DNA of 64,000 nucleotides from Coriobacteriia bacterium (GTDB lineage Bacteria > Actinomycetota > Coriobacteriia > Anaerosomatales > PALSA-660): positions 19,892 to 83,891 of the forward strand of contig JAUSBS010000100.1 in the NCBI GenBank assembly GCA_030651905.1. Direction: 5' to 3'. Both the position numbers and the translations under genes were made by a program. Shown here in pieces: positions 3,976 to 22,477 of the stretch. The notes under the pieces were generated by a model that did not search any database, had not been told where the DNA came from, and was given only the letters and a program-made list of their open reading frames with translations. How positions within the stretch are numbered: the stretch's first letter is position 1; every line of letters starts with the position of its first letter.

Positions 3976-6402
3976 CTACTCGTACGCGATGGCGTCGCGC
4001 ACGCTGACCTGCGAGGCGCGGAACGCGGGGAGCAGGCTCGCCACGGCGGAGATGCCCGCCACGACGAGAAGCCAGGCCAGCACCCCGCTCCACGAGAACT
4101 CATAGGACAGCGGGATGGTGATGGCCTTCTCGAGCAGCAGGACGAGTCCGAGACTCACGGGATAGGTGAAGACGGCCCCGAACGCCCAGCTGAGCACGCC
4201 TATGACGACACCCTCCGTGACGAAGACCTGGAATATCGAGCCATGCGAAGCGCCGACAGCGCGCATGACCCCGATCTCGCGGGTGCTCTCCAGAACGTTG
4301 ATGATCATCGTCCCCGACAGCCCTATGATGCCGACCGCCGCCAGGATGACCGCCATCACGATCAGGAACGTCACGAGGATGCCCAGCTCGTTCGCGAGCG
4401 TCGTGGACATGCCACGCTGTGTCCGTACGCCGGACACGACGAAGCCCGCCGACTTCAACCGCGCCTCCAGGCGATCGCCGGCCAAGCGCTGGCCCGCGTC
4501 GGAGGTGTCGGTCGTCCGAACGACGGTGCGCCCGACGGCGCCCTCCTCGCCCAACGCTCGGCTGAGATACTCACGGTCGGTGAAGACGAGCGATCCCATC
4601 ATCTGTCCCTGGACGATGCCCACCACGCGCCACTCGAGCTCCCGGCCGCGGACGGTGAACGTGCGCGTGTCTCCGATCCGCAGACCCTCGTCGTTCGCGA
4701 TGTCGGTGTTGATGACGACGAGTCCCACATCCCCGGGGCGGAGCCAGCGGCCCTCCACGAGGCGGGGCTTGATGAACGTGCTGGCCGGCGGCAAGCCGAT
4801 GACGCTCGGGGCGTCGTTCTCGCTGCCGTCGGGTCGTGCGAGCGACGCTCCGTGCAGGATCCAGCTCTCCGCTCCGGTGACACCCGGGGTGCTCAGGATC
4901 TCGCGCTCGACGGCGGCGCGGTTGACGGGCTGCTGGTAGCTCACCTCGACGTCGTAGCTCCACCACGCGGCGACGTCGTCGACGGTCTTGAGCATCGAGC
5001 TCCGGACGCTCATCACCGACATCACGACCGTCGAGGCGAGCGTGAGCGTGACGAGCGTCATGACGAGACGCCCCTTTCGCAGGAACGTGTTGCGCAAGCC
5101 CAGGGCGACCGGGCGTGGCAACCCGCGGACGAGTCCGAGCACGCGGTCGATGAAGCCATGGCCGAACTTGGCAGAGGACATCCCCGTGCGCGTGAGCGCG
5201 TTGACGACGCTGATACGCGTCCCGGTGCGGATGGGGAAGTACGCGGCGGCGAGCGGGACGAGCAGACCGACCGCGATCGCCAGAGCGATGGCGTAGCCGG
5301 GCGCGGTGGCGGGAGCATCGCCGAAGTTGAGCAGCCCGCCGCCGAACCGCGCGAACCATCCGGCCCACCATCCACCGGTCGGCAGTCCGACGAGCAGCGC
5401 GAGCACGCCGTACGCCGCCACGAGCGCCAGGTACATCCACATGATCTGCGACGAGCGCCCGCCGATGGCCTTCATCACGCCGACCTGTCTGACCTGCTGC
5501 GTGACGAGCGCGCTCACGGTGTTGACGACGAGGAAGCCGGACAGCAGCAGCGCCATGATGCCCAGTGCCAGCAGCAGGAGCGCCACGGCACGGAATATGT
5601 CGCCCAGGAAGTGGCTGTTCGGCTTCGGAACGTTCATGCCATAGACGGCCACGCCGCGCGGCGCCAGTACGTCGTCCCGCAGATGGGCCGCGAAGCGGCT
5701 CGCCTCGTCGCGGGTGAGATCCGCCCGATCCATCGAGACGACGAGCTGGTTGTAGGCCTCCGGCTGACGGAGGTCGGTGAGCTCTCCCATGGAGACGAAA
5801 CCGCGGAGACGGCCGGAGAACATGGCAGGAAACGCGTTGATGTCATGCGCGAACCCCACGACGCGCAGGACGCGCAGCTCGCCGTCACCGGCATCGACGG
5901 TGATGGAGTCGCCCTGCGCGATGTCGACCTCTTGCGTGGCCGAACGTTCGATGACCACTTCGCCGGGACCCGGCGGCCACGGCACTCCTTCATCCGCGAA
6001 CGCGCGCTCGACCTCCGAGGATGCCCAGTCGCCGGCGGACACGATCTCGATGCTGCGTGAGCGCTCAGCGACCGTCACGCCGGCGGGAGGCTCCTCCACG
6101 CCCCGCAGATCGCCGAGGCGGAACCGCATGACCGTCGAGCGACGCCCGTCCGCCGCACGCACGCCCGGCTGCCGCGCCACGGCGCGGACGAGCTCTTCGC
6201 CGAAGTCACTCGTGTAGAGGGTGGCGTTGGCCGGGACGGACCGGGGGAAGTTGCTGTCGAACGACTCGACGAGCATGCCACGGCCCCCGATGACGACGAG
6301 GATGGCGAAGACCCCGATCGCGATCGACAGCACAGTGAGTAGCGTGCGGATCTTGTGGGCGAGCAGGTCGCGTCCGATCTTGGACCAGCGCGGCTCAGCC
6401 AT
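3976..6402 (-). CDS. ABC transporter permease, FtsX/MacB family (two FtsX domains, large extracytoplasmic loops)
   Basis: Begins [35 protein letters not shown] and ends ...[18 protein letters not shown], typical of MacB-like permeases. ATG at 6402 overlaps the ATPase stop by 8 nt. Confidence 0.85.
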
Positions 6403-7174
6403 GACCTTGACCGGAGCCCTTGAGCGGACTGCGGGTCTCCTCGACGATCTCCCCGTCACGCACGTGGAGCGCGCGTGTCACACGTGCCGCCAGATCGTCG
6501 TCGTGGGTCACCATGACGATGGTCTTGCCTTGACGGACGAGCTTCTCGAAGAGCCCGAAGACAGCCTCGGCCGTCGTCGAATCCAGATTGCCGGTGGGCT
6601 CGTCGGCTGCGAGTATCGGCGGATCGTTGGCCAGCGCGCGTGCGATGGCGACGCGCTGCTGCTGGCCGCCGGAGAGCGCCGCGGGAAGCTTGTGCGCCTG
6701 ATCGACCATCTCGACTTGCTCCAGAAGCGCCATCGCATACGACTCCCGCTCCCGGACGGCGTGCACGTTGCAGAAGTCCATCGGGAGCATGACGTTCTCG
6801 ACGACGGTGAGCGTGGGAAGCAGCTGGAAGAACTGGAACACGACACCTATGGTCCGCCCTCGCCACGCAGCGAGCGCATTCTCCCCGAGAGCGTGGACCG
6901 GTGTCCCGTCCACGACGACCTGACCGGACGACGGACGATCGATACCCGTGATCATGTTGATGAGGGTGGTCTTGCCGGAGCCCGACTTGCCGATCAGTCC
7001 GACGAACTCGCCCTCGTCCACGACAAGATCGATGCCCTTGAGCGCGGTGAAGGGGACCTCGCCGGTGTCGTAGACCTTCACCAGGGACGAGAGTTCGATG
7101 AGCGGACGACCATGAGAGCGGCGAGCCACGTGTTCGTGCGTCCCTTCCAGGGAGCGGTGAACGGACGCGTGCAT
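6395..7174 (-). CDS. ABC transporter ATP-binding protein (MacB/LolD-like)
   Basis: Walker [11 protein letters not shown], signature [15 protein letters not shown], Walker [13 protein letters not shown]. Start is uncertain: ATG 7174, or GTG 7129 which has GGAAGGGA upstream. The Arg-rich ORF extension to 7435 was rejected. Confidence 0.85.
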
Positions 7175-14840: not shown

Positions 14841-15418
14841 GAGCCCGATCCGGGCAAGCCGGAGGCCTTGACGAGCGCCTTCAGCCGCTCCCACACCTTC
14901 GCCTTGGCCTGTGCGTCCTGAAGTGAGGCGGACAGGCTTCCCACGGCGCCGAGTGTCCGTCCACGTACCGAGACCGGGCGACCCGGTACCAGCGCCTTGA
15001 GTGCGAACGCTGCAGCCAGATCCTCGGCGGCTTCGTCGTCCAGAGCGATCACGAGCCGGGGGTCGACGGCCTCGACGACGAGCTCCAGGCGCCGGGCACG
15101 TGCCTCGAGCGGCGCATCAGCGGGGCGGGTGCAGACAGCCCACACCGAGCGGGGGTCGAGCCCGAGCGCCCCGAGTGCCTTGTCGGCCGCTTCGCCGTCG
15201 GGGCCCGCCAGCACACGTCGAGCGGTGCGGTCGGCCGCCTCGGGCAGCCCCTTGGCGACAACGACCGCCGCGAGCGGGTCGCCGGCCGAGGCGACACCGA
15301 AGGCGACTCCGAGCGCGGCGTCGGCGTCCTTGAGCTCCGCTCGCGCCTTGGCCTCGAAGCGGCGCTGGATCCGTTCGGCATCGTCGCTGGTCACGCGCTC
15401 TGCCTGAAGTAGGCCCAT
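14837..15418 (-). CDS. uracil-DNA-glycosylase-superfamily-like protein lacking recognisable catalytic motifs
   Basis: The pattern VVVAKGLPEAADRTARRVLAGPDGEAADKALGALGLDPRSVWAVCTRP...DPRLVIALDDEAA parallels family-4 UDG topology. The GE(A/G)PG and HPS motifs are absent. An alternative GTG start at 15394 forms a GTGA overlap with the epimerase stop. Confidence 0.45.
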   Translation of the reverse strand: MGLLQAERVTSDDAERIQRRFEAKARAELKDADAALGVAFGVASAGDPLAAVVVAKGLPEAADRTARRVLAGPDGEAADKALGALGLDPRSVWAVCTRPADAPLEARARRLELVVEAVDPRLVIALDDEAAEDLAAAFALKALVPGRPVSVRGRTLGAVGSLSASLQDAQAKAKVWERLKALVKASGLPGSGS

Positions 15419-16332
15419 GTCATGGCGAGTCCGCTCTCCAGGCCCTGGTTCGCCGTCCAGCCGAACATCTCGAGTGCCTTCGCGGGATCGAGCGCACTGC
15501 GCTCCACGTCGCCTTCTCGCGCGGGGAGGCGCTCGAACTCCTTGAGCACCATCGACTCCATCCGAAGCACCCCTGCGATCTCCTCGACCGAGGACTCGCG
15601 GCCCGTTGAGATGTTGTACGCCGGCCCGTCGGGCCCCGGTCCCGCTAGTGGGTCATCCGCGAAGAGCGCGTATATGATGGCGGCCACGACATCGCCGACG
15701 TAGATGAAGTCCCGTGTCTGTCGGCCCGTCCCGTAGATGACCGGCCTATCTCCGGCGGCCAGCTTCGTGGCGAAGATGGCGACCACGCCACCCTCGCCGT
15801 GTCCGTCCTGGCGGGGACCATACACGTTGGCGAATCGGAAGGACGCGAAGTCGGTGCCGGTCCCGGCCAGCGCCCCGGCAAGCGCCGCCTCAGCCTCCAG
15901 CTTCGAGACCCCATACGGGTTCATGGGCCGCTTGGACGACGTCTCTGACAGGGGGACCTCCGCCGGCTCGCCGTAGACCGCCGCGGACGACGCGGAGACG
16001 ACGCGCTCGACGCCGGCTGCAGCTGCCGCCGCAGCGACGGCCCGCGTCCCATCGACGTTGACCGCGTGGTCGCGAGCGGGATCGGCGATGGACGCCTGCA
16101 CATCGGCCTGCGCGGCGAGATGGACGACCGCTTCGGGAGCGAACTCGGCGACGAGGTCCGACAGGCCCGGGTCGAGGATGTCGATGCGCCTGAACCACGC
16201 CGCGGGATGGAGATTCTCGGCGCGACCGACCGACAGGTCGTCGATGACTCCCACCTCGTGGCGTCCGGTGATGAGGGCGTGGACCAGGTTGCTGCCGATG
16301 AAACCGGCGCCGCCGGTTACGAGTACGCGCAT
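15391..16332 (-). CDS. NAD-dependent epimerase/dehydratase (GalE-like)
   Basis: MRVLVTGGAGFIGSNLV is a Rossmann motif; YGVSK is the catalytic YxxxK. ATG at 16332. Confidence 0.85.
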   Translation of the reverse strand: MRVLVTGGAGFIGSNLVHALITGRHEVGVIDDLSVGRAENLHPAAWFRRIDILDPGLSDLVAEFAPEAVVHLAAQADVQASIADPARDHAVNVDGTRAVAAAAAAAGVERVVSASSAAVYGEPAEVPLSETSSKRPMNPYGVSKLEAEAALAGALAGTGTDFASFRFANVYGPRQDGHGEGGVVAIFATKLAAGDRPVIYGTGRQTRDFIYVGDVVAAIIYALFADDPLAGPGPDGPAYNISTGRESSVEEIAGVLRMESMVLKEFERLPAREGDVERSALDPAKALEMFGWTANQGLESGLAMTWAYFRQSA

Positions 16333-16363
16333 CAGCCGTGCTCCTTCGCAGGTCGTGTCCGGG

Positions 16364-17062
16364 TCACTTCGCCGACTCGCCACTTCCCTCGAGGCGCCGG
16401 ACGTCCACCAGACGCGCTTGGACGATGAGGCGCTCGCGGGCGCTGTAGGGGGGATGACACGCCGTGAGCGTGAGCATCGGGTCCTCGGTGTGCGCCACGA
16501 CCTCCACGTGGTCGGGTGTCACCGCGAAGATGCGGACGACCTGGTAGCGGTAGCGGCGATACGGCGAGTAGAGGTCGATGGTATCACCCGATGTGAGCAC
16601 GTCCAGACTCCCGAAGGGGTGCCCGTACGTCGTGCGGTGGCCCGAGATGCCGACGTTGCCCGTCGCGCCCGGCAGATCGGTCGTGGTGATCCAGCCGGGG
16701 CCACGGCGAAGGTCGCCTGCCGCCGTTCCCTTCACGACGACCGTGTCGAGGCCCATCTTCTCGATCACGAGCCGCCCGAACGCTCCGCCGCGCGCGAGGG
16801 AACCCCAGTATCCCCCGTCGGCGGCGTCCCATCCGGAGAAGTCCATGAGGACGGGTTGCGCCGGCGATACCACCGAATTGCCGAGGACGGAAGCGACCAG
16901 CTGCGTGCGCAGGGCCGACTGGTCGAGGTAGTTCACCGCATCGGTGACCCCGACATAGGCCACAAGCCCGAGGGCCGCACCGAGCAGCACGTTGGCCAGC
17001 GCGTGAAGTGAGAGCCGGAGAGGGCCGACCGGCACACTCGCCGCAAGCACCGATCCACTCAT
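16364..17062 (-). CDS. class E sortase
   Basis: N-terminal TM segment, ISGHRTTYGHPF, catalytic TLTAC, and C-terminal RLIVQARL, typical of actinobacterial SrtE. GGGAGGGAGG RBS precedes ATG 17062. Confidence 0.85.
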   Translation of the reverse strand: MSGSVLAASVPVGPLRLSLHALANVLLGAALGLVAYVGVTDAVNYLDQSALRTQLVASVLGNSVVSPAQPVLMDFSGWDAADGGYWGSLARGGAFGRLVIEKMGLDTVVVKGTAAGDLRRGPGWITTTDLPGATGNVGISGHRTTYGHPFGSLDVLTSGDTIDLYSPYRRYRYQVVRIFAVTPDHVEVVAHTEDPMLTLTACHPPYSARERLIVQARLVDVRRLEGSGESAK

Positions 17063-17184
17063 GGCGGTCCGCCTCCCTCCCGCTACCGGCACCACCTCCG
17101 CGCGCTCCCCCACTATAAGTAATCTCACCTGACCTGCCGATATCACTCCTGTACGGCACGTTTGACATCAGGGACGCGAAAGCG

Positions 17185-17290
17185 GCTTCTCCCCGAAAAG
17201 GCACACCCCGCGAAAGCGGGGGTCGCAAAGTCACGGGTCTACCGGAGGGCGAAACCCCTCCCATGACGGCCGGACTGCCGAAGGTGAACG
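17185..17290 (+). promoter_or_regulatory. c-di-GMP-I (GEMM-I)-like riboswitch aptamer, copy 1
   Basis: GAAAAGGCACA-CCCCGC-GAAA-GCGGGG-GUCGCAAAGUCACGGGUCUACCGGAGGG-CGAAA-CCCCUCCCAUGACGGCCGGACUGCCGAAGG aligns block by block with the remembered Vc2 aptamer. That aptamer reads CAGGGCAAA-CCAUUC-GAAA-GAGUGG-GACGCAAAGCCUCCGGCC...GGUAGCGGGGUUACCGAUGG. It sits in the 5' leader of the HExxH gene. Confidence 0.65.
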
Positions 17291-17311
17291 ACCTGACGTC
17301 CGCATGGTGCG

Positions 17312-17367
17312 GCCGGGCCCTCCCGAAGGCGACGCGACCTTCGAGGATGAGCCCGGCTTCTCGTCTC
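17312..17367 (+). terminator. riboswitch expression platform: long GC hairpin plus UUCUCGUCU (putative attenuator), copy 1
   Basis: GCCGGGCCCUCCCGAAGG-CGACGCGA-CCUUCGAGGAUGAGCCCGGC followed by UUCUCGUCUCC. The 5' arm repeats the aptamer box CUCCCCGAAAAGGC as CCUCCCGAAGGC. Confidence 0.45.
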
Positions 17368-17394
17368 CCCGCACGCACAGGGAGTACGCGCACC

Positions 17395-18006
17395 ATGCAC
17401 CGTTGCTCATCATCCACACGACTCATCGCGGCGCTGACGATCGTCCTGATCGTCGCGCTCGTGGTTCCGGCGATCGTGAGCGCGGCACCCGTGCCGTTCC
17501 GGGTCGGTGCGACGAACGCCGGCTCCTCCGCTGCGCTCGCCTCTGTGGCCGAGGAGCACGCCCTCGACGCCAAGACCGCAGCGGTGGCCGCCGAGGCCGC
17601 TGCGTTGGCGGAGCAGCAGCGGATCGCAGCTGCCGCTCTGGTGGAGAAGGAGCGACTCGCGGCGGCGGCATACACGGCGGCCCGGACGAGCGCGAAGAAG
17701 CCGGCCGCCAAGACCGCGAAGATCTCAGGCGGCAGCGAGCTCACGCAGGCACAGTCGATCCTCGCCTCGCTCAGGTCCCGCTACCCCCGCTACCTGTCCG
17801 GAGCCACCGTCTCGATCGGCTCCGCAAAGGGCTACCAAGCGATCTCGTACTACACGTCGGGCCGCATCGTCATCAGCCCGACGCATCGAGCCAGTCTTGA
17901 GCGGATCCTCGCCCACGAGATCTGGCACATCATCGACTGGCGGGACAACGGCCGCATCGATTGGGGCGAGCGCGTACCGCCGAGCAACGCCGCGAGCTAC
18001 CGCTAG
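17395..18006 (+). CDS. secreted protein with minimal HExxH (zinc metallopeptidase-like) C-terminal domain, paralog 1
   Basis: Signal peptide MHRCSSSTRLIAALTIVLIVALVVPAIVSA, an Ala-rich linker, and the conserved C-terminal domain ...YPRYLSGATVSIGSAKGYQAISYYTSGRIVISPTHRASLERILAHEIWHIIDWRDNGRIDWGE. AGGGAG RBS. Confidence 0.75.
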   Translation: MHRCSSSTRLIAALTIVLIVALVVPAIVSAAPVPFRVGATNAGSSAALASVAEEHALDAKTAAVAAEAAALAEQQRIAAAALVEKERLAAAAYTAARTSAKKPAAKTAKISGGSELTQAQSILASLRSRYPRYLSGATVSIGSAKGYQAISYYTSGRIVISPTHRASLERILAHEIWHIIDWRDNGRIDWGERVPPSNAASYR

Positions 18007-18030
18007 CAGCTCGCGCTGAAGGATGCGAAC

Positions 18031-18051
18031 ACCGCCGGGTCATCCGGCGGT
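18031..18051 (+). terminator. hairpin after HExxH paralog 1
   Basis: ACCGCCGG-GTCAT-CCGGCGGT lies 25 nt after the stop. No U tract. Confidence 0.3.
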
Positions 18052-18228
18052 CTGGTCGTGCAGTGGCGCCGACCGGCCGGGCACCCGACGGCCCCTTTCG
18101 GCGTGTGCTGCTGCCGTTCATCGTAATCATGGACCTTCTATAAGCGAGAACCGTCCGACCCTATAAGGGTTCGCCACGTCGGTGCCGATAGTGTGTGATG
18201 TAAGGCACATTGACAGCGAGATGAATAC

Positions 18229-18335
18229 GGGTGCTCCCCGAAAAAGGCACAGCCCGCGAAAGCGGGCGTCGCAAAGTCACGGGTCTACCGGAGGCGGAAT
18301 CCAAGCCTCCCACGACAGCCGGACCGCCGAGGTAG
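18229..18335 (+). promoter_or_regulatory. c-di-GMP-I (GEMM-I)-like riboswitch aptamer, copy 2
   Basis: GAAAAAGGCACA-GCCCGC-GAAA-GCGGGC-GUCGCAAAGUCACGGGUCUACCGGAGGC...GCCUCCCACGACAGCCGGACCGCCGAGG. The P1b stem differs from copy 1 by compensatory changes (CCCCGC/GCGGGG versus GCCCGC/GCGGGC). Confidence 0.65.
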
Positions 18336-18357
18336 AGAACCAGGACTCGAATAAGTC

Positions 18358-18417
18358 GAGACCCGGGTGCTCCGAAGGCAAGATGCGACGGAGCGCTCCC
18401 GGGTCTCGTCTCGTGTC
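18358..18417 (+). terminator. riboswitch expression platform hairpin plus GUCUCGUGU, copy 2
   Basis: GAGACCCGGGUGCUCCG...CGGAGCGCUCCCGGGUCUC followed by GUCUCGUGUC. The 5' arm (CGGGUGCUCCGAAGGCA) duplicates the aptamer 5' segment (CGGGUGCUCCCCGAAAAAGGCA). Confidence 0.45.
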
Positions 18418-18437
18418 AGGTTCTCAAGGGGCGCACC

Positions 18438-19025
18438 ATGAAGTACACGATCAAGTCGCTGGCCACCACGATGATCGCCGCTCTCCTCCTGGCGATCCTG
18501 GTCCTGCCGCTCGCCGGCTCCGGAACCCCGGTCGCCAGCGGTGCATCGATCGCGGCCTCCAAGAGCGCCCCGTTCGCCGCCTACACCAGGCGGCGCCGTG
18601 TGAAGCGCGTCATCAAGCGCCGCAGGGTCCGCCACCATCATCACCGCGTCGTGCGTCGCCGCAAGGTCGCACGGCGCCCGGTCGCCACGGCGCCCGTCGC
18701 CCCGCTGGCCATCGTCGCAGCCCCGGTCGCCCCCACGGCTCCGGTCGTCGACGAGGCCGCTCTCGCGCAGACGATCCTCGACGGGCTCAAGGCGCAGTAT
18801 CCGCGCTACCTCAGCAACGCGACGGTCAGCATGGGAGATGCCATGGGATACCAGGCCATCTCCTACTACACCAGCGGGCGGATCGTCGTCAGCCCGACCC
18901 ACACGGCCACTCTCTCCAGGATCATGAACCACGAGATCTGGCACATCATCGACTGGCAGGACGATGGCGCGCTTGACTGGGGCGAGGCCATCCCGCCCAC
19001 GAACATGAGCACGTACGCGAACTAG
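18438..19025 (+). CDS. secreted protein with minimal HExxH domain, paralog 2 (carries an Arg/His-rich tract)
   Basis: Signal peptide MKYTIKSLATTMIAALLLAILVLPLAG. Polybasic tract RRRRVKRVIKRRRVRHHHHRVVRRRKVARR. The C-terminal domain is mostly identical by eye to paralog 1, including NHEIWHIIDWQDDG. Confidence 0.8.
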   Translation: MKYTIKSLATTMIAALLLAILVLPLAGSGTPVASGASIAASKSAPFAAYTRRRRVKRVIKRRRVRHHHHRVVRRRKVARRPVATAPVAPLAIVAAPVAPTAPVVDEAALAQTILDGLKAQYPRYLSNATVSMGDAMGYQAISYYTSGRIVVSPTHTATLSRIMNHEIWHIIDWQDDGALDWGEAIPPTNMSTYAN

Positions 19026-19047
19026 CTGTCCTGGGCAAGGACCGGTT

Positions 19048-19086
19048 GGAGGGGCCTCCCCGCGCGAGTCGCGGTGGGGCCCCTCC
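19048..19086. terminator. convergent-gene hairpin 1
   Basis: GGAGGGGCC...GGCCCCTCC stem between the converging HExxH-2 and LPXTG genes. Confidence 0.4.
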
Positions 19087-19136
19087 GCCGTTCTCGGTGA
19101 CCGCCATCGGATGCCGTGGATGACCCCGGACATGGT

Positions 19137-19174
19137 GGAGGGCGGGTCGTCTCCGAGGAGATGACCCGCCCTCC
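19137..19174. terminator. convergent-gene hairpin 2
   Basis: GGAGGGCGGGTC-GTCTCCGAGGAGAT-GACCCGCCCTCC, a 12-bp perfect outer stem. It lies 40 nt beyond the LPXTG gene stop. Confidence 0.45.
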
Positions 19175-19213
19175 GGGGGCAAGGACCGGCGGGGTGCGCC
19201 GGGCTTGTCGTCC

Positions 19214-22198
19214 TTATGCCACGCGGTGCGAGACGCGTCGAAGTACCACGCCTGCAAGCGCGAGCACGCCCGCCGCGAGCAGCAGCAGGTAGAGGTCGAT
19301 GCCGGTGAACGGCAGGAACGGCAGCGTCACGACCACGCGCGCCTTGTCCACGTTGTCGACCGGAGTCTTGTCGATCGTCGGATCATCCGGGAAGTCGATC
19401 TTGACGGTGTTGTCGATCTTCGTGCCGTCCGCCACGTCGCTCTTGACCCTCATCTTGTAGACGATGGTCCCGGAGGCATCGGGGAGGAGCGGGCCTGTGA
19501 GGTTCCACGTGATCTTGCCGCCCGACACGGTGCCCCCAGCCGCGTCGACAACGTCGACGTAGCGCTCGTCGTAGTCGTCCACGATCTGGAAGTCGGTGGC
19601 CGAGGCCTTGCCGTCGTTGCCGTAGACCAGCGTGTAGGTGAGGATCTCGTCCGGGTCCGCGATCGTTGGCGTGACCGACTTGTGGATCCAGAGATCCGGC
19701 TCGTCGAAACCGATGAACGGCTCCTGGTTGCCAAAGTCGAGGTCCTGGGTGGAAGAACCGCCCGTGACGGTGACGGGCTCAGGGCTGACCGTGCGAACCC
19801 AGCCCGTCTGCATCTCCTCAGTGAGGAAGTACAGCCCCGGCTTGAGGTTCCCGAACGAGTAGGCACCGCCGGGTCCGGTCGTGGTAGAGGCAACGAACAC
19901 ATAGTCCGCTGGGACCGACGGGCTCTCTTCGCCGCTGGCAGCCAGCATCGGGAGGGACTGGAACAGCTCTCTGATATCCCTGTGCCTGTAGAGATTGATG
20001 GTCCAGCCGGCGAGCAGGGGTTCGCCGATCGCCTTGATGGTGTCGCCGTTGAGGTCGTTGAACTTGACGCCGTTGAGATCGCTGAACTGGGTGTTGCCGA
20101 CCACAACGCGCTTGGTCTGCCCGCCGACCAGCGTGAACTCGACCGGGACCTCGCTCGTCGACTGGTACCAGCCCGTCTCGGAGGCCTCGGTGAGCTTGTA
20201 CGTACCGGGCATCAGGTTCTCGAACGACAGGTTGCCGGACGAGTCGGTCAACGCAGTGAACGTCGCCGTATCGGCCCCCGCGGGCCCCGTCAGTGTGAAT
20301 TCGCGTACGAGACCCGGCTCAGGGGCGTCAAAGATGCCATCACCGTTGAAGTCGTTGAACTTCACGACCTGAACGACCGCGAGCTCCTCGTTGGTGAAGT
20401 CCAGGTTGTACAGGTGGGTGGTGTGGCCGATGGTGGCGGCGTCAGCGGCGCTGTCATAGATCGGCGCGGACTTCTGCACCCAGCCGGTCTCCATGGCCTC
20501 CTCGACGTAGTAGTCGCCGGGCTCGAGGTCGTAGAAGGCCCAGTGGCCGGGAAGGCCGTCGACGGATCTGGTGACCGTCGTGGCGACCGAACCGATGGTG
20601 CCTGTCTTGTAGAGCTTGATGGTCCAGCCGTTGAGGCCGGCCCCGCCCTCGAAGTTGAACTTGTGGCCGGAGATCTCGTTGTCGACGACCTCGTCGTTTT
20701 TGAAGTCCAGGTCGGTCAGGTGGGTGGTGTGGCCGATGGTGGCGGCGTCAGCGGCGCTGTCATAGATCGGCGCGGACTTCTGCACCCAGCCGGTCTCCAT
20801 CTCTTCCTGCACGTAGTACTTGCCGGGCTCGAGGTCGTAGAAGGCCCAGTGGCCGGGAAGGCCGTCGACGGACTTGGTGATCGTCGAGGCGACCGAGGCT
20901 GCGGTGCCTTCCTTGTAGAGCTTGATGGTCCAGTTGTTGAGGCCGGCTCCGCCATCGAAGTTGAACTTGTGGCCGGAGATCTCGTTGGACACCTGTGCGT
21001 TCCCGAAGACTCCGCAATCCTTCGTCTCGGAATGCCCGAGCTGGAATCCACTTGTGATGCCGCTCTTCGTACAGATCCAGGTCTCACCGGCGGGAGCTGC
21101 GCCCTCCGCCAACTTGTAGTAGCCGTCGTCGACGACCCGCTTCGAGGGGTCGGTATCGTCGTGGCTGAAGAACACGAGACCGTTCGAATCGGTGGTCTTG
21201 GTGATCGTCTTCACTACCGTTGTGTACGTGCTGTCTGTGTACTGCGTCAGAACGAACGGCCAGCCACTGATCCAGGGCTCGCCGGTCTCCTGCACGCCGT
21301 CTGCGTCCAGGTCGTGGAACTTCTTGGCTTGGATGTGCGAGCAGAAGTCGGGCTCATCGGCGAAGCGGACGTCGATATGACTGAGGCCGGCCCACTGGCT
21401 GCCGTCACACTCCGTGCCGGATGGCGGGCTGTGCATGAGCGTGTCGTGGTAGCTCCCGTCCGTGCCGAACGCGCTGTATACGTTGGCGTTCGGACCGCCC
21501 TTGACCACCATGTAGGTGACGGGCGCAGTGGACGTCCACGCGAACACCGGTCCGTAGGTGCCGGTGCTCACAGTGATGGTGATGCTCACCGACGTGCCAT
21601 GGTGCAGGAACGAGTATGTCTGGGTGCCGGAGGAGATGGCCCCGGCGCCGGGCACGCCATCCGGAATCCTGAAGTCGCCCGCAACCAGACTCGGGTTGCC
21701 GTCCACTATCGTCGGCTGTACGCCGTCGCCCGAAGGACTGTTCAGCGCGGTCGTGCTCGACACGACGACGCCCATATCCAGCGCGGCAGCCGTGACGGTG
21801 ACGGGTGCGGGCTCCTCCGAGGGTGCCGGATCGGGCGCCGGTGCCGGGTCTGCCGGCGGCGCAGGGTCGGGCGCCGGTGCCGGGTCTGCCGGCGGCGCGG
21901 GATCAGGCGCGGGTGCCGGATCGGGTGCCGGTGCCGGGTCTGCCGGCGGCGCAGGGTCGGGCGCCGGTGCCGGATCAGGCGCAGGGTCTGGCGCTGGTGC
22001 CGGATCGGGCGCGGGTGCGGCCTGCTCCGGAGCAGGCGCATCGATCGCGTACGCGACCGCGACGACGCCAGGACCGGTCATGGCGAACACGAGCACCATG
22101 GCCGTGAGCGCCGCCAACCACTTGCGGATCCATCGAACGTGCGGCCTCGAGAGCGCCATCGTCCTCATCCCCCTGTCCGCGACGCGCCAGCGTCGCAT
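19214..22198 (-). CDS. LPXTG-anchored cell-surface protein with Pro-rich N-terminal tract, SdrD-B/Cna-B-like repeats and DUF11-like domain
   Basis: Signal peptide ...WLAALTAMVLVFAMTGPGVVAVAYA, then (PAPD)n. About 5-6 prealbumin-like repeats (GHKFNF...GW.I.LY...PG.Y...E....GW). A DUF11-like segment (LWIHKSV...ILTYTLVYGNDG). The C-terminus is LPFTG plus a hydrophobic stretch plus RRVSHRVA. Start is uncertain among ATG 22198, 22168 and 22159. Confidence 0.85.
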   Translation of the reverse strand: MRRWRVADRGMRTMALSRPHVRWIRKWLAALTAMVLVFAMTGPGVVAVAYAIDAPAPEQAAPAPDPAPAPDPAPDPAPAPDPAPPADPAPAPDPAPAPDPAPPADPAPAPDPAPPADPAPAPDPAPSEEPAPVTVTAAALDMGVVVSSTTALNSPSGDGVQPTIVDGNPSLVAGDFRIPDGVPGAGAISSGTQTYSFLHHGTSVSITITVSTGTYGPVFAWTSTAPVTYMVVKGGPNANVYSAFGTDGSYHDTLMHSPPSGTECDGSQWAGLSHIDVRFADEPDFCSHIQAKKFHDLDADGVQETGEPWISGWPFVLTQYTDSTYTTVVKTITKTTDSNGLVFFSHDDTDPSKRVVDDGYYKLAEGAAPAGETWICTKSGITSGFQLGHSETKDCGVFGNAQVSNEISGHKFNFDGGAGLNNWTIKLYKEGTAASVASTITKSVDGLPGHWAFYDLEPGKYYVQEEMETGWVQKSAPIYDSAADAATIGHTTHLTDLDFKNDEVVDNEISGHKFNFEGGAGLNGWTIKLYKTGTIGSVATTVTRSVDGLPGHWAFYDLEPGDYYVEEAMETGWVQKSAPIYDSAADAATIGHTTHLYNLDFTNEELAVVQVVKFNDFNGDGIFDAPEPGLVREFTLTGPAGADTATFTALTDSSGNLSFENLMPGTYKLTEASETGWYQSTSEVPVEFTLVGGQTKRVVVGNTQFSDLNGVKFNDLNGDTIKAIGEPLLAGWTINLYRHRDIRELFQSLPMLAASGEESPSVPADYVFVASTTTGPGGAYSFGNLKPGLYFLTEEMQTGWVRTVSPEPVTVTGGSSTQDLDFGNQEPFIGFDEPDLWIHKSVTPTIADPDEILTYTLVYGNDGKASATDFQIVDDYDERYVDVVDAAGGTVSGGKITWNLTGPLLPDASGTIVYKMRVKSDVADGTKIDNTVKIDFPDDPTIDKTPVDNVDKARVVVTLPFLPFTGIDLYLLLLAAGVLALAGVVLRRVSHRVA
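20396..20995 (-). repeat. two tandem 306-bp (102-codon) near-identical intragenic repeats
   Basis: The block beginning GAAGTCCAGGT...GGTGGGTGGTGTGGCCGATGGTGGCGGCGTCAGCGGCGCTGTCATAGATCGGCGCGGACTTCTGCACCCAGCCGGTCTCCAT recurs at an offset of exactly 306 nt (20396 versus 20702). Long runs are identical. Confidence 0.8.
21822..22018 (-). repeat. low-complexity GC-rich repeat encoding (DPAPAPDPAPPA)n
   Basis: Reiterated GGTGCCGGGTCTGCCGGCGGCGCAGGGTCGGGCGCC-type units of about 36 nt. They are in frame within the surface protein. Confidence 0.7.
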
Positions 22199-22477
22199 CT
22201 ACTCGCCGCGGCCGGCTGCTACAGGTATGAGGACGCAGAAGACCGGCCGCCTCGGGCCGGTCTCACGATTGACTCCCCGCCGGTCAAACTCGTGACCGTC
22301 ATGCACACCGGCGGATCGCAGTCTCCCGAATTCACAGTATGTAGTGCACCCCGAAAGCCGTGGTACACCTTGCCCCTGCTGGGCGTTATACCCCCTCGCG
22401 AATGCGCCGGTAAGCCCCCGTTGGGCGAATTCATACCAGAGGATGAGTGGTTTCTTAGAGACGCTCTCGTGCGGGTG

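Follow-up and report, generated by a model that had tools for sequence, protein, structure and literature searches.

Genes and riboswitches of the locus

The window analysed here is a stretch of 64,000 nucleotides (nt) of contig JAUSBS010000100.1 (assembly GCA_030651905.1), which belongs to the 1.88 Mb genome of a groundwater actinobacterium of the class Coriobacteriia. Positions 16364–22335 of the window hold a sortase gene, two consecutive units each composed of a riboswitch and a gene for a small protein with an HExxH motif, a converging gene for a giant surface protein, and a third riboswitch situated between the latter gene and its far-side neighbour, lon. The initial annotation of this DNA had named four kinds of element (sortase, leaders, HExxH genes and an LPXTG gene), all of which were found where it had placed them; the third riboswitch, located on the minus strand at 22246–22335 and thus outside the region it delimited, had been overlooked.

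We consider, with a little better than even confidence, that the locus is a conserved cell-surface display module of one order of Coriobacteriia, the output of which is set by cyclic-dinucleotide riboswitches. A chance origin is excluded, since the Rfam E-values of the riboswitches range from 1e-8 to 1e-15 and dozens of genomes share the arrangement. Covariance-model searches of the whole genome revealed exactly these three aptamers of both riboswitch classes, and the metabolism of c-di-GMP (cyclic diguanosine monophosphate) is encoded in the genome, with 11 GGDEF and 4 EAL matches. The features of the locus, with protein lengths in amino acids (aa), are listed below.

16364–17146, minus strand: sortase gene, given as the open reading frame (ORF); Pfam Sortase, E-value 1e-29
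17140–17112, minus strand: promoter-like site within the sortase ORF
17190–17283, plus strand: c-di-GMP-I aptamer 1; RF01051, 74.7 bits
17284–17394, plus strand: expression platform 1; hairpin at about 17307–17365, then UUCUCGUCUCC; Shine–Dalgarno sequence GGGAG at 17380–17384
17395–18006, plus strand: HExxH protein A, 203 aa; signal peptide, Ala-rich spacer and C-terminal mini-zincin domain; HEIWHIID at 17914–17937
18236–18332, plus strand: c-di-GMP-I aptamer 2; RF01051, 65.8 bits
18333–18437, plus strand: expression platform 2; hairpin at about 18355–18412, then GUCUCGUGUC; Shine–Dalgarno sequence AAGGGG at 18424–18429
18438–19025, plus strand: HExxH protein B, 195 aa; signal peptide, very basic Arg/His tract and C-terminal mini-zincin domain; HEIWHIID at 18930–18953
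19214–22198, minus strand: giant surface protein, 994 aa; signal peptide, SdrD_B, SpaA and DUF11 (CLIPPER) immunoglobulin (Ig)-like repeats, LPFTG end
19301–19315, minus strand: sorting signal LPFTG, with the membrane segment and basic tail (RR) at 19217–19300
about 21820–22045, minus strand: Pro-rich spacer of the giant protein, directly after the signal peptide
22227–22264, minus strand: expression platform of the third riboswitch; GAGACCGGCC (22264–22255) pairs with GGCCGGUCUU (22248–22239) in a terminator-type hairpin
22246–22335, minus strand: c-di-GMP-II-GAG aptamer; RF03169, 55.2 bits against a cut-off of 40

Class I riboswitches upstream of the HExxH genes

The leaders of the two HExxH genes, initially described as GEMM-I-like, proved to be true c-di-GMP-I riboswitches, their scores of 74.7 and 65.8 bits comparing with a gathering cut-off of 35 bits for RF01051. 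Both aptamers carry the binding pocket G20/A47/C92 (Vc2 numbering), which is found in AAAGGCA, in CGC-A-AAG and in the GC before the 3' strand of helix P1. Among 64 homologues, these strings vary hardly or not at all, CGCAAAG being invariant, and the alignment of homologues revealed covariation in helices P2 and P3. Because clan competition in cmscan goes by E-value, both leaders were labelled by this program as RF03167 (c-di-GMP-I-GGC), at 68.2 and 62.5 bits, below their RF01051 scores. The GGC variant is defined by a G replacing the intercalating A47. This label was rejected for both leaders, since position 47 is occupied by A and not by G, as it also is in all 64 homologues.

A class II variant riboswitch upstream of the surface-protein gene

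The third aptamer is located 48 nt upstream of the gene for the giant protein. Its identity as a canonical c-di-GMP-II riboswitch (RF01786) was rejected in view of the score of 40.4 bits versus 53.5 and of the G at position 69. The pocket, read from the conserved string GUGA-G-A-C-C-G, is G69/A70/G73 ("GAG"), with A69 changed to G. According to the solved structure of the class II riboswitch, one guanine is recognised by A69 and the second by G73, and A70 intercalates (PMC13715770). The segment GUGAGACCG is invariant in 13 homologues and nearly invariant in 43; the loop CGGUCAC is complementary to GUGA..ACCG, which accounts for the pseudoknot, and double changes were detected in 12 of the 15 modelled pairs among the 43 class II-GAG homologues.

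The c-di-GMP-II-GAG variant was reportedly defined as an orphan class by Weinberg et al. in 2017. No report of its ligand was found in a literature search that did not extend to the defining paper, and the paper on 224 candidate structured RNAs contains no description of these variants. With the A69G pocket, the switch of the surface-protein gene may have an altered affinity for c-di-GMP or respond to another dinucleotide. Gating of the locus by c-di-GMP only is not established, given the pocket variant on the adhesin gene.

The architecture downstream of the pocket is informative as to the sign of control. The 3' core of the aptamer, GAGACCGNCCC, which contains the pseudoknot's 3' strand along with that of P1, is complementary to a strand at most 45 nt downstream. 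In the window, GAGACCGGCC comprises these pseudoknot and P1 3' strands, and the hairpin that it forms (22264–22239, –20.8 kcal/mol) has a poorer U-tract and is followed by CGUCCUCAU (22235–22227), which is complementary to the Shine–Dalgarno region AUGAGGACG (22168–22160). The overlap of aptamer and terminator, followed by a U-rich run, occurs in 37 of 43 homologous leaders. Since the folded, bound aptamer and the terminator are mutually exclusive, the element, as read from its sequence, is clearly predicted to be a transcriptional ON switch.

In two loci, L075 (10617–10705, minus strand) and L080 (10607–10695, minus strand), a canonical A69 class II aptamer (..GUCAAACCGG..) occupies the site at which the others have the GAG variant; in L080 it precedes the gene of a 1379-aa protein with ..EEFLPFTGGE. 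Canonical and variant pockets consequently serve one type of gene within a single order.

Conservation of the module in Coriobacteriia

In two near relatives, the genes follow one another as they do here: the dnaK operon, ferredoxin, a 190-aa gene, an epimerase gene, the sortase gene, one or two HExxH genes, the giant surface-protein gene and lon. A scan of one genome per species yielded 80 loci, all from metagenome-assembled genomes of Coriobacteriia, several of them labelled Anaerosomatales, together with one isolate-like record; aptamers in these loci were located with purpose-built covariance models. A class I aptamer is present on the same strand, 400–650 nt upstream of the HExxH domain, in 64 of the 80 loci, the 16 others being three truncated loci, one sortase-linked locus (L039) and 12 shorter paralogues. 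The class II-GAG model gave 43 matches in the same loci; for 42 of these, the match lies downstream of the zincin gene and on the opposite strand, and in about 36 of these 42 cases the aptamer is followed by a gene for a protein of 530–1900 aa ending in (E)PFLPFTG(G) and a membrane segment; several of the remaining six or so genes are broken by masked or frameshifted sequence. Of the 64 related loci, 63 have a sortase gene at the corresponding place. The sortase gene is divergent and upstream in all 61 riboswitch-bearing loci with enough flanking sequence, and it does not adjoin the riboswitch-less paralogues, except in L039. The full cluster, composed of the sortase gene, the class I riboswitch with the zincin gene, and the class II-GAG riboswitch with the gene for the LPFTG protein, was found in at least 61 species-level genomes of one order. 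The gene neighbourhood from which the initial annotation had argued is, by the counts of 64/80, 42/43 and 61/61, conserved in relatives.

The shorter paralogues form a subfamily with neither a class I riboswitch nor an adjacent sortase gene; the 12 counted above are 140–220 aa long, and those of loci L062, L070, L074, L078, L081, L084, L086 and L088–L091 measure 139–170 aa. Some genomes hold both the short and the riboswitch-linked kind.

The range of the module was then delimited with a sample of 151 Coriobacteriia genomes, 83 of them from orders other than that of the window. RF03169 was detected in 54 and the HExxH domain in 56 of the 151 genomes, in every case within the order of the window, where 49 genomes have both, five only the riboswitch, seven only the domain, and seven neither; among the 83 sampled genomes of other orders, RF03169 and the HExxH domain were found in none. 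Most genomes of the order possess a single c-di-GMP-I riboswitch, and in 27 of the 31 genomes with both features it lies 380–700 nt upstream of the domain. The closest sampled relative, G149, which belongs to the same genus and is represented by one contig of 2.7 Mb, contains neither the HExxH domain nor RF03169, so that the module varies within the genus; one shorter c-di-GMP-I aptamer was found elsewhere in this genome. In gain, loss and duplication, the module behaves as a unit.

Secreted mini-zincin proteins

The start codon of protein A is the ATG at 17395, which follows the Shine–Dalgarno sequence GGGAG, an ATG at 17263 falling within the aptamer. N-terminal signal sequences in both translations agree with the earlier statement that the HExxH proteins are secreted. 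Their C-terminal domains are 66% identical. The segment between signal peptide and zincin domain is an extremely basic tract in protein B (RRRRVKRVIKRRRVRHHHHRVVRRRKVARRP, residues about 45–76, positions 18570–18665) and an Ala/Glu-rich spacer in protein A.

The HExxH proteins gave no usable match in Pfam or NCBIfam (E 0.1), and a profile search of the PDB with the HExxH domain returned chance matches only, with E-values of 0.36 or weaker. An exhaustive protein search delineated an unnamed family, which at 50% identity comprises about 177 clusters. Nearly all members are 130–230 aa long with a C-terminal domain of about 90 aa; in a few distant members the domain is fused to CW_binding_2, DUF5648 or other repeats. 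The top match of the protein search, P0031 (2321 aa, 16 stretches), was rejected as a match of Cna-B-like repeats without HExxH. Comparison of 38 diverse sequences revealed that H66, E67, H70 and D73 of the HExxHxxD motif are invariant and that the W, E and P of a downstream WGE..PP motif are nearly so.

The AlphaFold2 model of residues 100–195 of protein B (predicted local distance difference test score, pLDDT, of 94) consists of two N-terminal helices, three strands, a long helix bearing the HExxH motif (60–77) and a short C-terminal helix. The best Foldseek matches were the minigluzincins selecase, abylysin and jannalysin, followed by IrrE and SPRTN, with weak E-values of 0.03–0.4. An exhaustive structural aligner ranked SPRTN (Z 7.5), selecase (Z 6.4) and abylysin (Z 6.1) highly, nearly all of its top 50 matches being zincins, and a structure search of the Atlas found SprT-like proteins with a template modelling (TM) score of 0.74. 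PPEP-3 and PPEP-2 are among the structural matches at the generic level of Z 4.4 and 4.2. The model thus allows a confident assignment of the domain to a minimal zincin fold, nearest to SprT, SPRTN and the minigluzincins, and makes catalysis plausible. Modelling pointed to the fold of a zincin metallopeptidase and to no other fold, and the view that these proteins are unrelated to the M34 protease PPEP-1 holds, considering the lack of Pfam and NCBIfam matches, the merely generic fold match and a domain of half the size.

The domain might be non-catalytic, acting as a metal- or protein-binding module, for instance as a partner of the sortase or the adhesin with a chaperone-like or inhibitory role. 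Its small size (about 90 aa), the third metal ligand, for which there are only candidates (D73 or E84), and the moderate fold matches, with Z up to 7.5 and Foldseek E-values of 0.03 or weaker, would fit such a role. However, the general base Glu and the two His residues show no variation among the 38 diverse sequences, and minigluzincins of 105–110 aa are solved metallopeptidases with the same core; we regard a non-catalytic role as highly improbable.

If the domain is an active peptidase, it could be wall-associated with a target other than the neighbouring surface protein, such as peptidoglycan stem peptides or envelope or environmental proteins, and share with that protein only the second-messenger regulon and the position. 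Distant members fused to CW_binding_2 or DUF5648, encoded near VanW, PG_binding and polysaccharide genes without sortase or riboswitch, are in line with this proposal, as are the subfamily of short riboswitch-less paralogues away from any sortase and the genomes with the domain without RF03169 (seven) or the reverse (five). For three of the distant fused homologues (P0121, P0171 and P0095), neither a riboswitch nor a sortase gene was found nearby. HExxH zincins are rarely peptidoglycan hydrolases, which counts against this proposal, and so do the adjacency of sortase, zincin and LPFTG genes in at least 61 species and the fact that the three genes constitute the complete regulon of these riboswitch classes in the genome. 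Altogether, a separate target of this kind seems quite unlikely.

Giant surface protein and the possible target of the zincins

The gene for the giant surface protein more likely starts at ATG 22159 (981 aa, preceded by GAGGA) than at ATG 22198. The signal peptide and the C-terminal LPFTG, hydrophobic segment and RR are those expected of the LPXTG protein with a Pro-rich tract that had been recognised earlier. DUF11 (PF01345) is now designated CLIPPER, a name used in a survey of intramolecular isopeptide bonds (bioRxiv 10.1101/2025.04.25.650565), so that bonds of this kind may stabilise the giant protein. The Pro-rich tract lies at the N-terminus and is of low complexity and not conserved, homologues carrying other spacers rich in Pro/Glu/Val or Asp/Glu. 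It was rejected as a cleavage region of the PPEP type on account of its N-terminal position and lack of conservation.

Between the last Ig-like domain and PFLPFTG there are only two to four acidic residues, leaving almost no linker. Four surface proteins have a tandem pseudo-sorting motif before the real one, namely PFLPFTE-PFLPFTG, ALPFTEEEPFLPFTG, PYMPYTEKGEPFLPFTG and SLPFTEEEEEESLPFTG; the loci are L012 (6565–6774, minus strand), L022 (gene after 8918), L052 (6473–6682, minus strand) and L071 (10250–10459, minus strand). It is a matter of speculation that the extended (E)PF before LPFTG, and likewise the tandem LPFTE and LPFTG, mark a recognition site.

The zincin would act as an extracellular zinc peptidase, its target being the co-regulated LPFTG protein or the anchorage of this protein, either by trimming the N-terminal Pro/Glu-rich spacer or by cutting at the conserved (E)PFLPFT segment, and would then be a functional analogue of PPEP-1 of Clostridioides difficile derived from an unrelated and much smaller protease. 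We infer the neighbouring surface protein as the target by analogy, from the adjacency in at least 61 species, the exclusive shared regulon, the extracellular location of both partners, the wall-binding fusions in distant relatives and the precedent of C. difficile and Paenibacillus. A prediction of the complex of the zincin domain with the C-terminal 70 aa of the surface protein scored 0.02, which gives no answer and is neutral in this respect.

Expression platforms of the class I leaders and the sign of control

The class I leaders share a common order of elements: the aptamer, a short helix, the 5' strand of which abuts the 3' strand of P1, a strong hairpin rich in GC, the short helix's 3' strand, AAGGGG, a spacing of about 8 nt, and AUG. 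In their minimum-free-energy folds, the 5' flank and the 5' strand of P1 (CUCCCC) pair with the Shine–Dalgarno sequence and the spacer. Duplexes of the 5' flank with the Shine–Dalgarno region had a mean of –17.9 kcal/mol for cognate against –15.0 kcal/mol for non-cognate combinations, a value as low being reached in none of 2000 permutations, and several distinct compensating sequence pairs are visible in these duplexes. When the bound state was approximated by barring the aptamer nucleotides from other pairing, the modelled openness of the Shine–Dalgarno sequence rose from 0.35 to 0.62, with a rise in 36 of 40 leaders.

Leader 2, that of protein B, follows this pattern: its 5' flank and P1 5' strand (GGGUGCUCCCC, about 18227–18240) are complementary to the Shine–Dalgarno sequence and spacer, its minimum-free-energy fold has the 5' end paired with the Shine–Dalgarno sequence (z-score –5.1), and openness rises from 0.33 to 0.67 with the aptamer closed. 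Leader 1, that of protein A, has a fold z-score of –4.0 and shares homology with the platform conserved across the 64 related leaders. Its platform (17284–17394) contains, just upstream of the Shine–Dalgarno sequence, a second copy, a local one, of the leader's 5' flank at 17170–17195 (GGCUUCUC..UCCCC).

Folding of the conserved platform suggests that class I control in these bacteria is translational and ON, not OFF as in C. difficile: c-di-GMP would lock four C residues into P1 and free the GGGG of the ribosome-binding site. If so, the zincin and the surface protein would be made together and not reciprocally. The initial annotation had proposed an adhesion/release switch, which implies that c-di-GMP turns the protease off; this is the part of its proposal with which the folding inference disagrees.

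A release switch of the C. difficile type would require that high c-di-GMP turn the zincin off through a hairpin terminator and the adhesin on, and that at low c-di-GMP the zincin be made and detach the anchored protein from the wall by cleavage. The wiring matches that of C. difficile, in which class I control of zmpI is OFF and class II control of CD2831 and CD3246 is ON (PMC6366702). Moreover, every class I leader has the strong GC-rich hairpin between the aptamer and the Shine–Dalgarno sequence, a true U-tract, UUUU(U), following it in one subclade (L047, L054, L026 and L050), and (E)PFLPFTG is conserved beyond the LPXTG core, with four tandem LPFTE/LPFTG cases, so that it could be an anchor-side protease site. 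However, no alternative pairing that links the hairpin with the aptamer was found, a search of the class I leaders for an anti-terminator having revealed only possibilities of 4–6 base pairs; the covariation supports the pairing of the P1 5' strand with the Shine–Dalgarno sequence, which predicts ON; and, unlike at PPEP-1 sites, no flexible linker precedes LPFTG. We therefore consider antagonistic release unlikely. RNAalifold applied to the complete class I leader did not resolve the platform.

Sortase and its operon

The sortase gene is divergent from the first riboswitch unit. Its true start is probably near 17062, because the promoter-like site is inside the ORF and homologues are 220–248 aa long. 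The sortase stop codon overlaps the start of the epimerase gene (15391–16383), so that the two form an operon in which the sortase is translationally coupled to the downstream epimerase gene. The segment 14837–16383 on the minus strand comprises this gene, encoding an NAD-dependent epimerase/dehydratase, followed by a conserved 190-aa gene without a Pfam family. The order of sortase, epimerase and 190-aa genes is kept in relatives, which suggests a sortase operon with a sugar-modifying function.

The best NCBIfam sortase match is class E (NF033747) with 107.8 bits, the other classes scoring lower (73–77 bits for class D and 56 bits for class C). Class E sortases use substrate motifs of the LAXTG type. 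The designation as a class E sortase in the initial annotation is thus correct as to the nearest class, but the NCBIfam cut-off of 160 bits is missed and the substrate motif is LPFTG. It is the single strong sortase of the genome, and the LPFTG protein is the single protein of its kind. The sole other sortase-like gene, a weak one with 33% identity over 115 aa, is located on contig C105 of the genome (G000) at about 4896–6667. It adjoins the gene of a 399-aa protein ending in LPNTA and a membrane segment, no riboswitch was found there, and the two look like a second dedicated pair of sortase and substrate.

Function of the module and its significance

Several points weigh against reading the locus as a riboswitch-controlled display module with a co-expressed peptidase. 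A search of sequencing runs found the locus only in a groundwater metagenome DNA run and in no RNA run. The genomes that carry it are kin and share a wider synteny, from the dnaK operon through lon, so that the locus counts do not represent independent events and the conservation is partly inheritance. It is solely gene neighbourhood that links the zincin to the surface protein, and the 90-aa zincin domain could serve for binding or regulation and not as an active peptidase. As to the sign of control, the strong hairpin conserved in every class I leader, with its U-tract in one subclade, could be a regulated terminator, which would make the sign OFF. In addition, the Shine–Dalgarno sequence of leader 1 is buried by a local hairpin in both modelled states because of the local copy of the 5' flank, unlike in leader 2 and most homologues.

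The two kinds of pocket at the locus also allow a two-signal gate to be envisaged, in which the zincin genes read c-di-GMP through class I riboswitches, the adhesin gene reads another messenger through A69G, such as 3',3'-cGAMP, c-di-AMP or linear pGpG, and the mini-zincins are processing or release proteases of the LPFTG proteins. We offer this combination tentatively, as a possibility that is on balance improbable. If true, it would provide both a ligand and a role for the orphan c-di-GMP-II-GAG class, namely the control of sortase-anchored LPFTG proteins in one order.

If the locus is indeed a surface display module under riboswitch control, it would be a second, independently assembled case of riboswitch-gated control of a protease and an adhesin, outside Firmicutes and with a different protease, which would argue that this circuit design offers a general way of switching surface adhesion. 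For the orphan c-di-GMP-II-GAG variant, the locus provides a clear and uniform gene context and an ON-switch architecture, by which the ligand becomes directly testable; for the secreted mini-zincins, an unnamed family with about 177 clusters, it points to a function. In these groundwater and subsurface Coriobacteriia with small genomes, the three genes of the module are the sole ones found behind these two riboswitch classes.

Comparison with known systems

Among minimal zincins (selecase, abylysin and jannalysin; SprT, Wss1 and SPRTN), the N-terminal helix, three-stranded sheet, HExxH helix and comparable size are shared with the domain described here, which differs in having no detectable sequence relationship to them, in its HExxHxxD and WGE..PP motifs and in being secreted instead of cytoplasmic or DNA-associated. 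The sortase resembles the class E enzymes of Actinobacteria in its best-scoring class and its actinobacterial host, and differs from them in its sub-cut-off score, in LPFTG instead of LAXTG and in having a single dedicated substrate. With the c-di-GMP-II-GAG class (RF03169), the third riboswitch shares an above-cut-off score and the G69/A70/G73 pocket; what is added here is the restriction to one order in the class sample, the PFLPFTG gene context and the ON design based on exclusion of the terminator, a context that was not found in the literature searched.

The closest counterparts are the systems of C. difficile and Paenibacillus, in which a class I riboswitch accompanies a protease gene and a class II riboswitch the gene of a sortase substrate, and in which the sortase substrate encoded next door is cleaved by the zinc protease under riboswitch control (PMC6366702, PMC8610288). 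In C. difficile, the class I riboswitch on zmpI is OFF and the class II riboswitches on CD2831 and CD3246 are ON (PMC6366702). Homologues of PPEP have been reported only in Clostridiales and Bacillales (PMC8610288). The analogy with C. difficile drawn in the initial annotation is closer than claimed, in that the surface-protein gene, like CD2831 and CD3246, is preceded by its own class II-type riboswitch, and it fails in one respect, as the Pro-rich tract is no anchor-side linker like those with PPEP-1 sites.

Compared with PPEP-1/ZmpI, CD2831, CD3246, sortase B and Cdi-1/Cdi-2 of C. difficile and with PPEP-2/VMSP of P. alvei, the locus described here likewise has a class I riboswitch on an HExxH protease gene beside the gene of a sortase substrate with a class II-type transcriptional ON switch. 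The differences lie in the components: the protease domain is of about 90 aa and belongs to an unnamed family, whereas that of the PPEP systems is a PPEP/M34-like domain of about 190 aa; the module contains the sortase gene; its class II element belongs to the A69G (GAG) variant; Pro-Pro sites are absent from the vicinity of the anchor; and the class I riboswitch probably acts on translation and is probably ON. The module shares its wiring with the C. difficile system and consists of unrelated parts.

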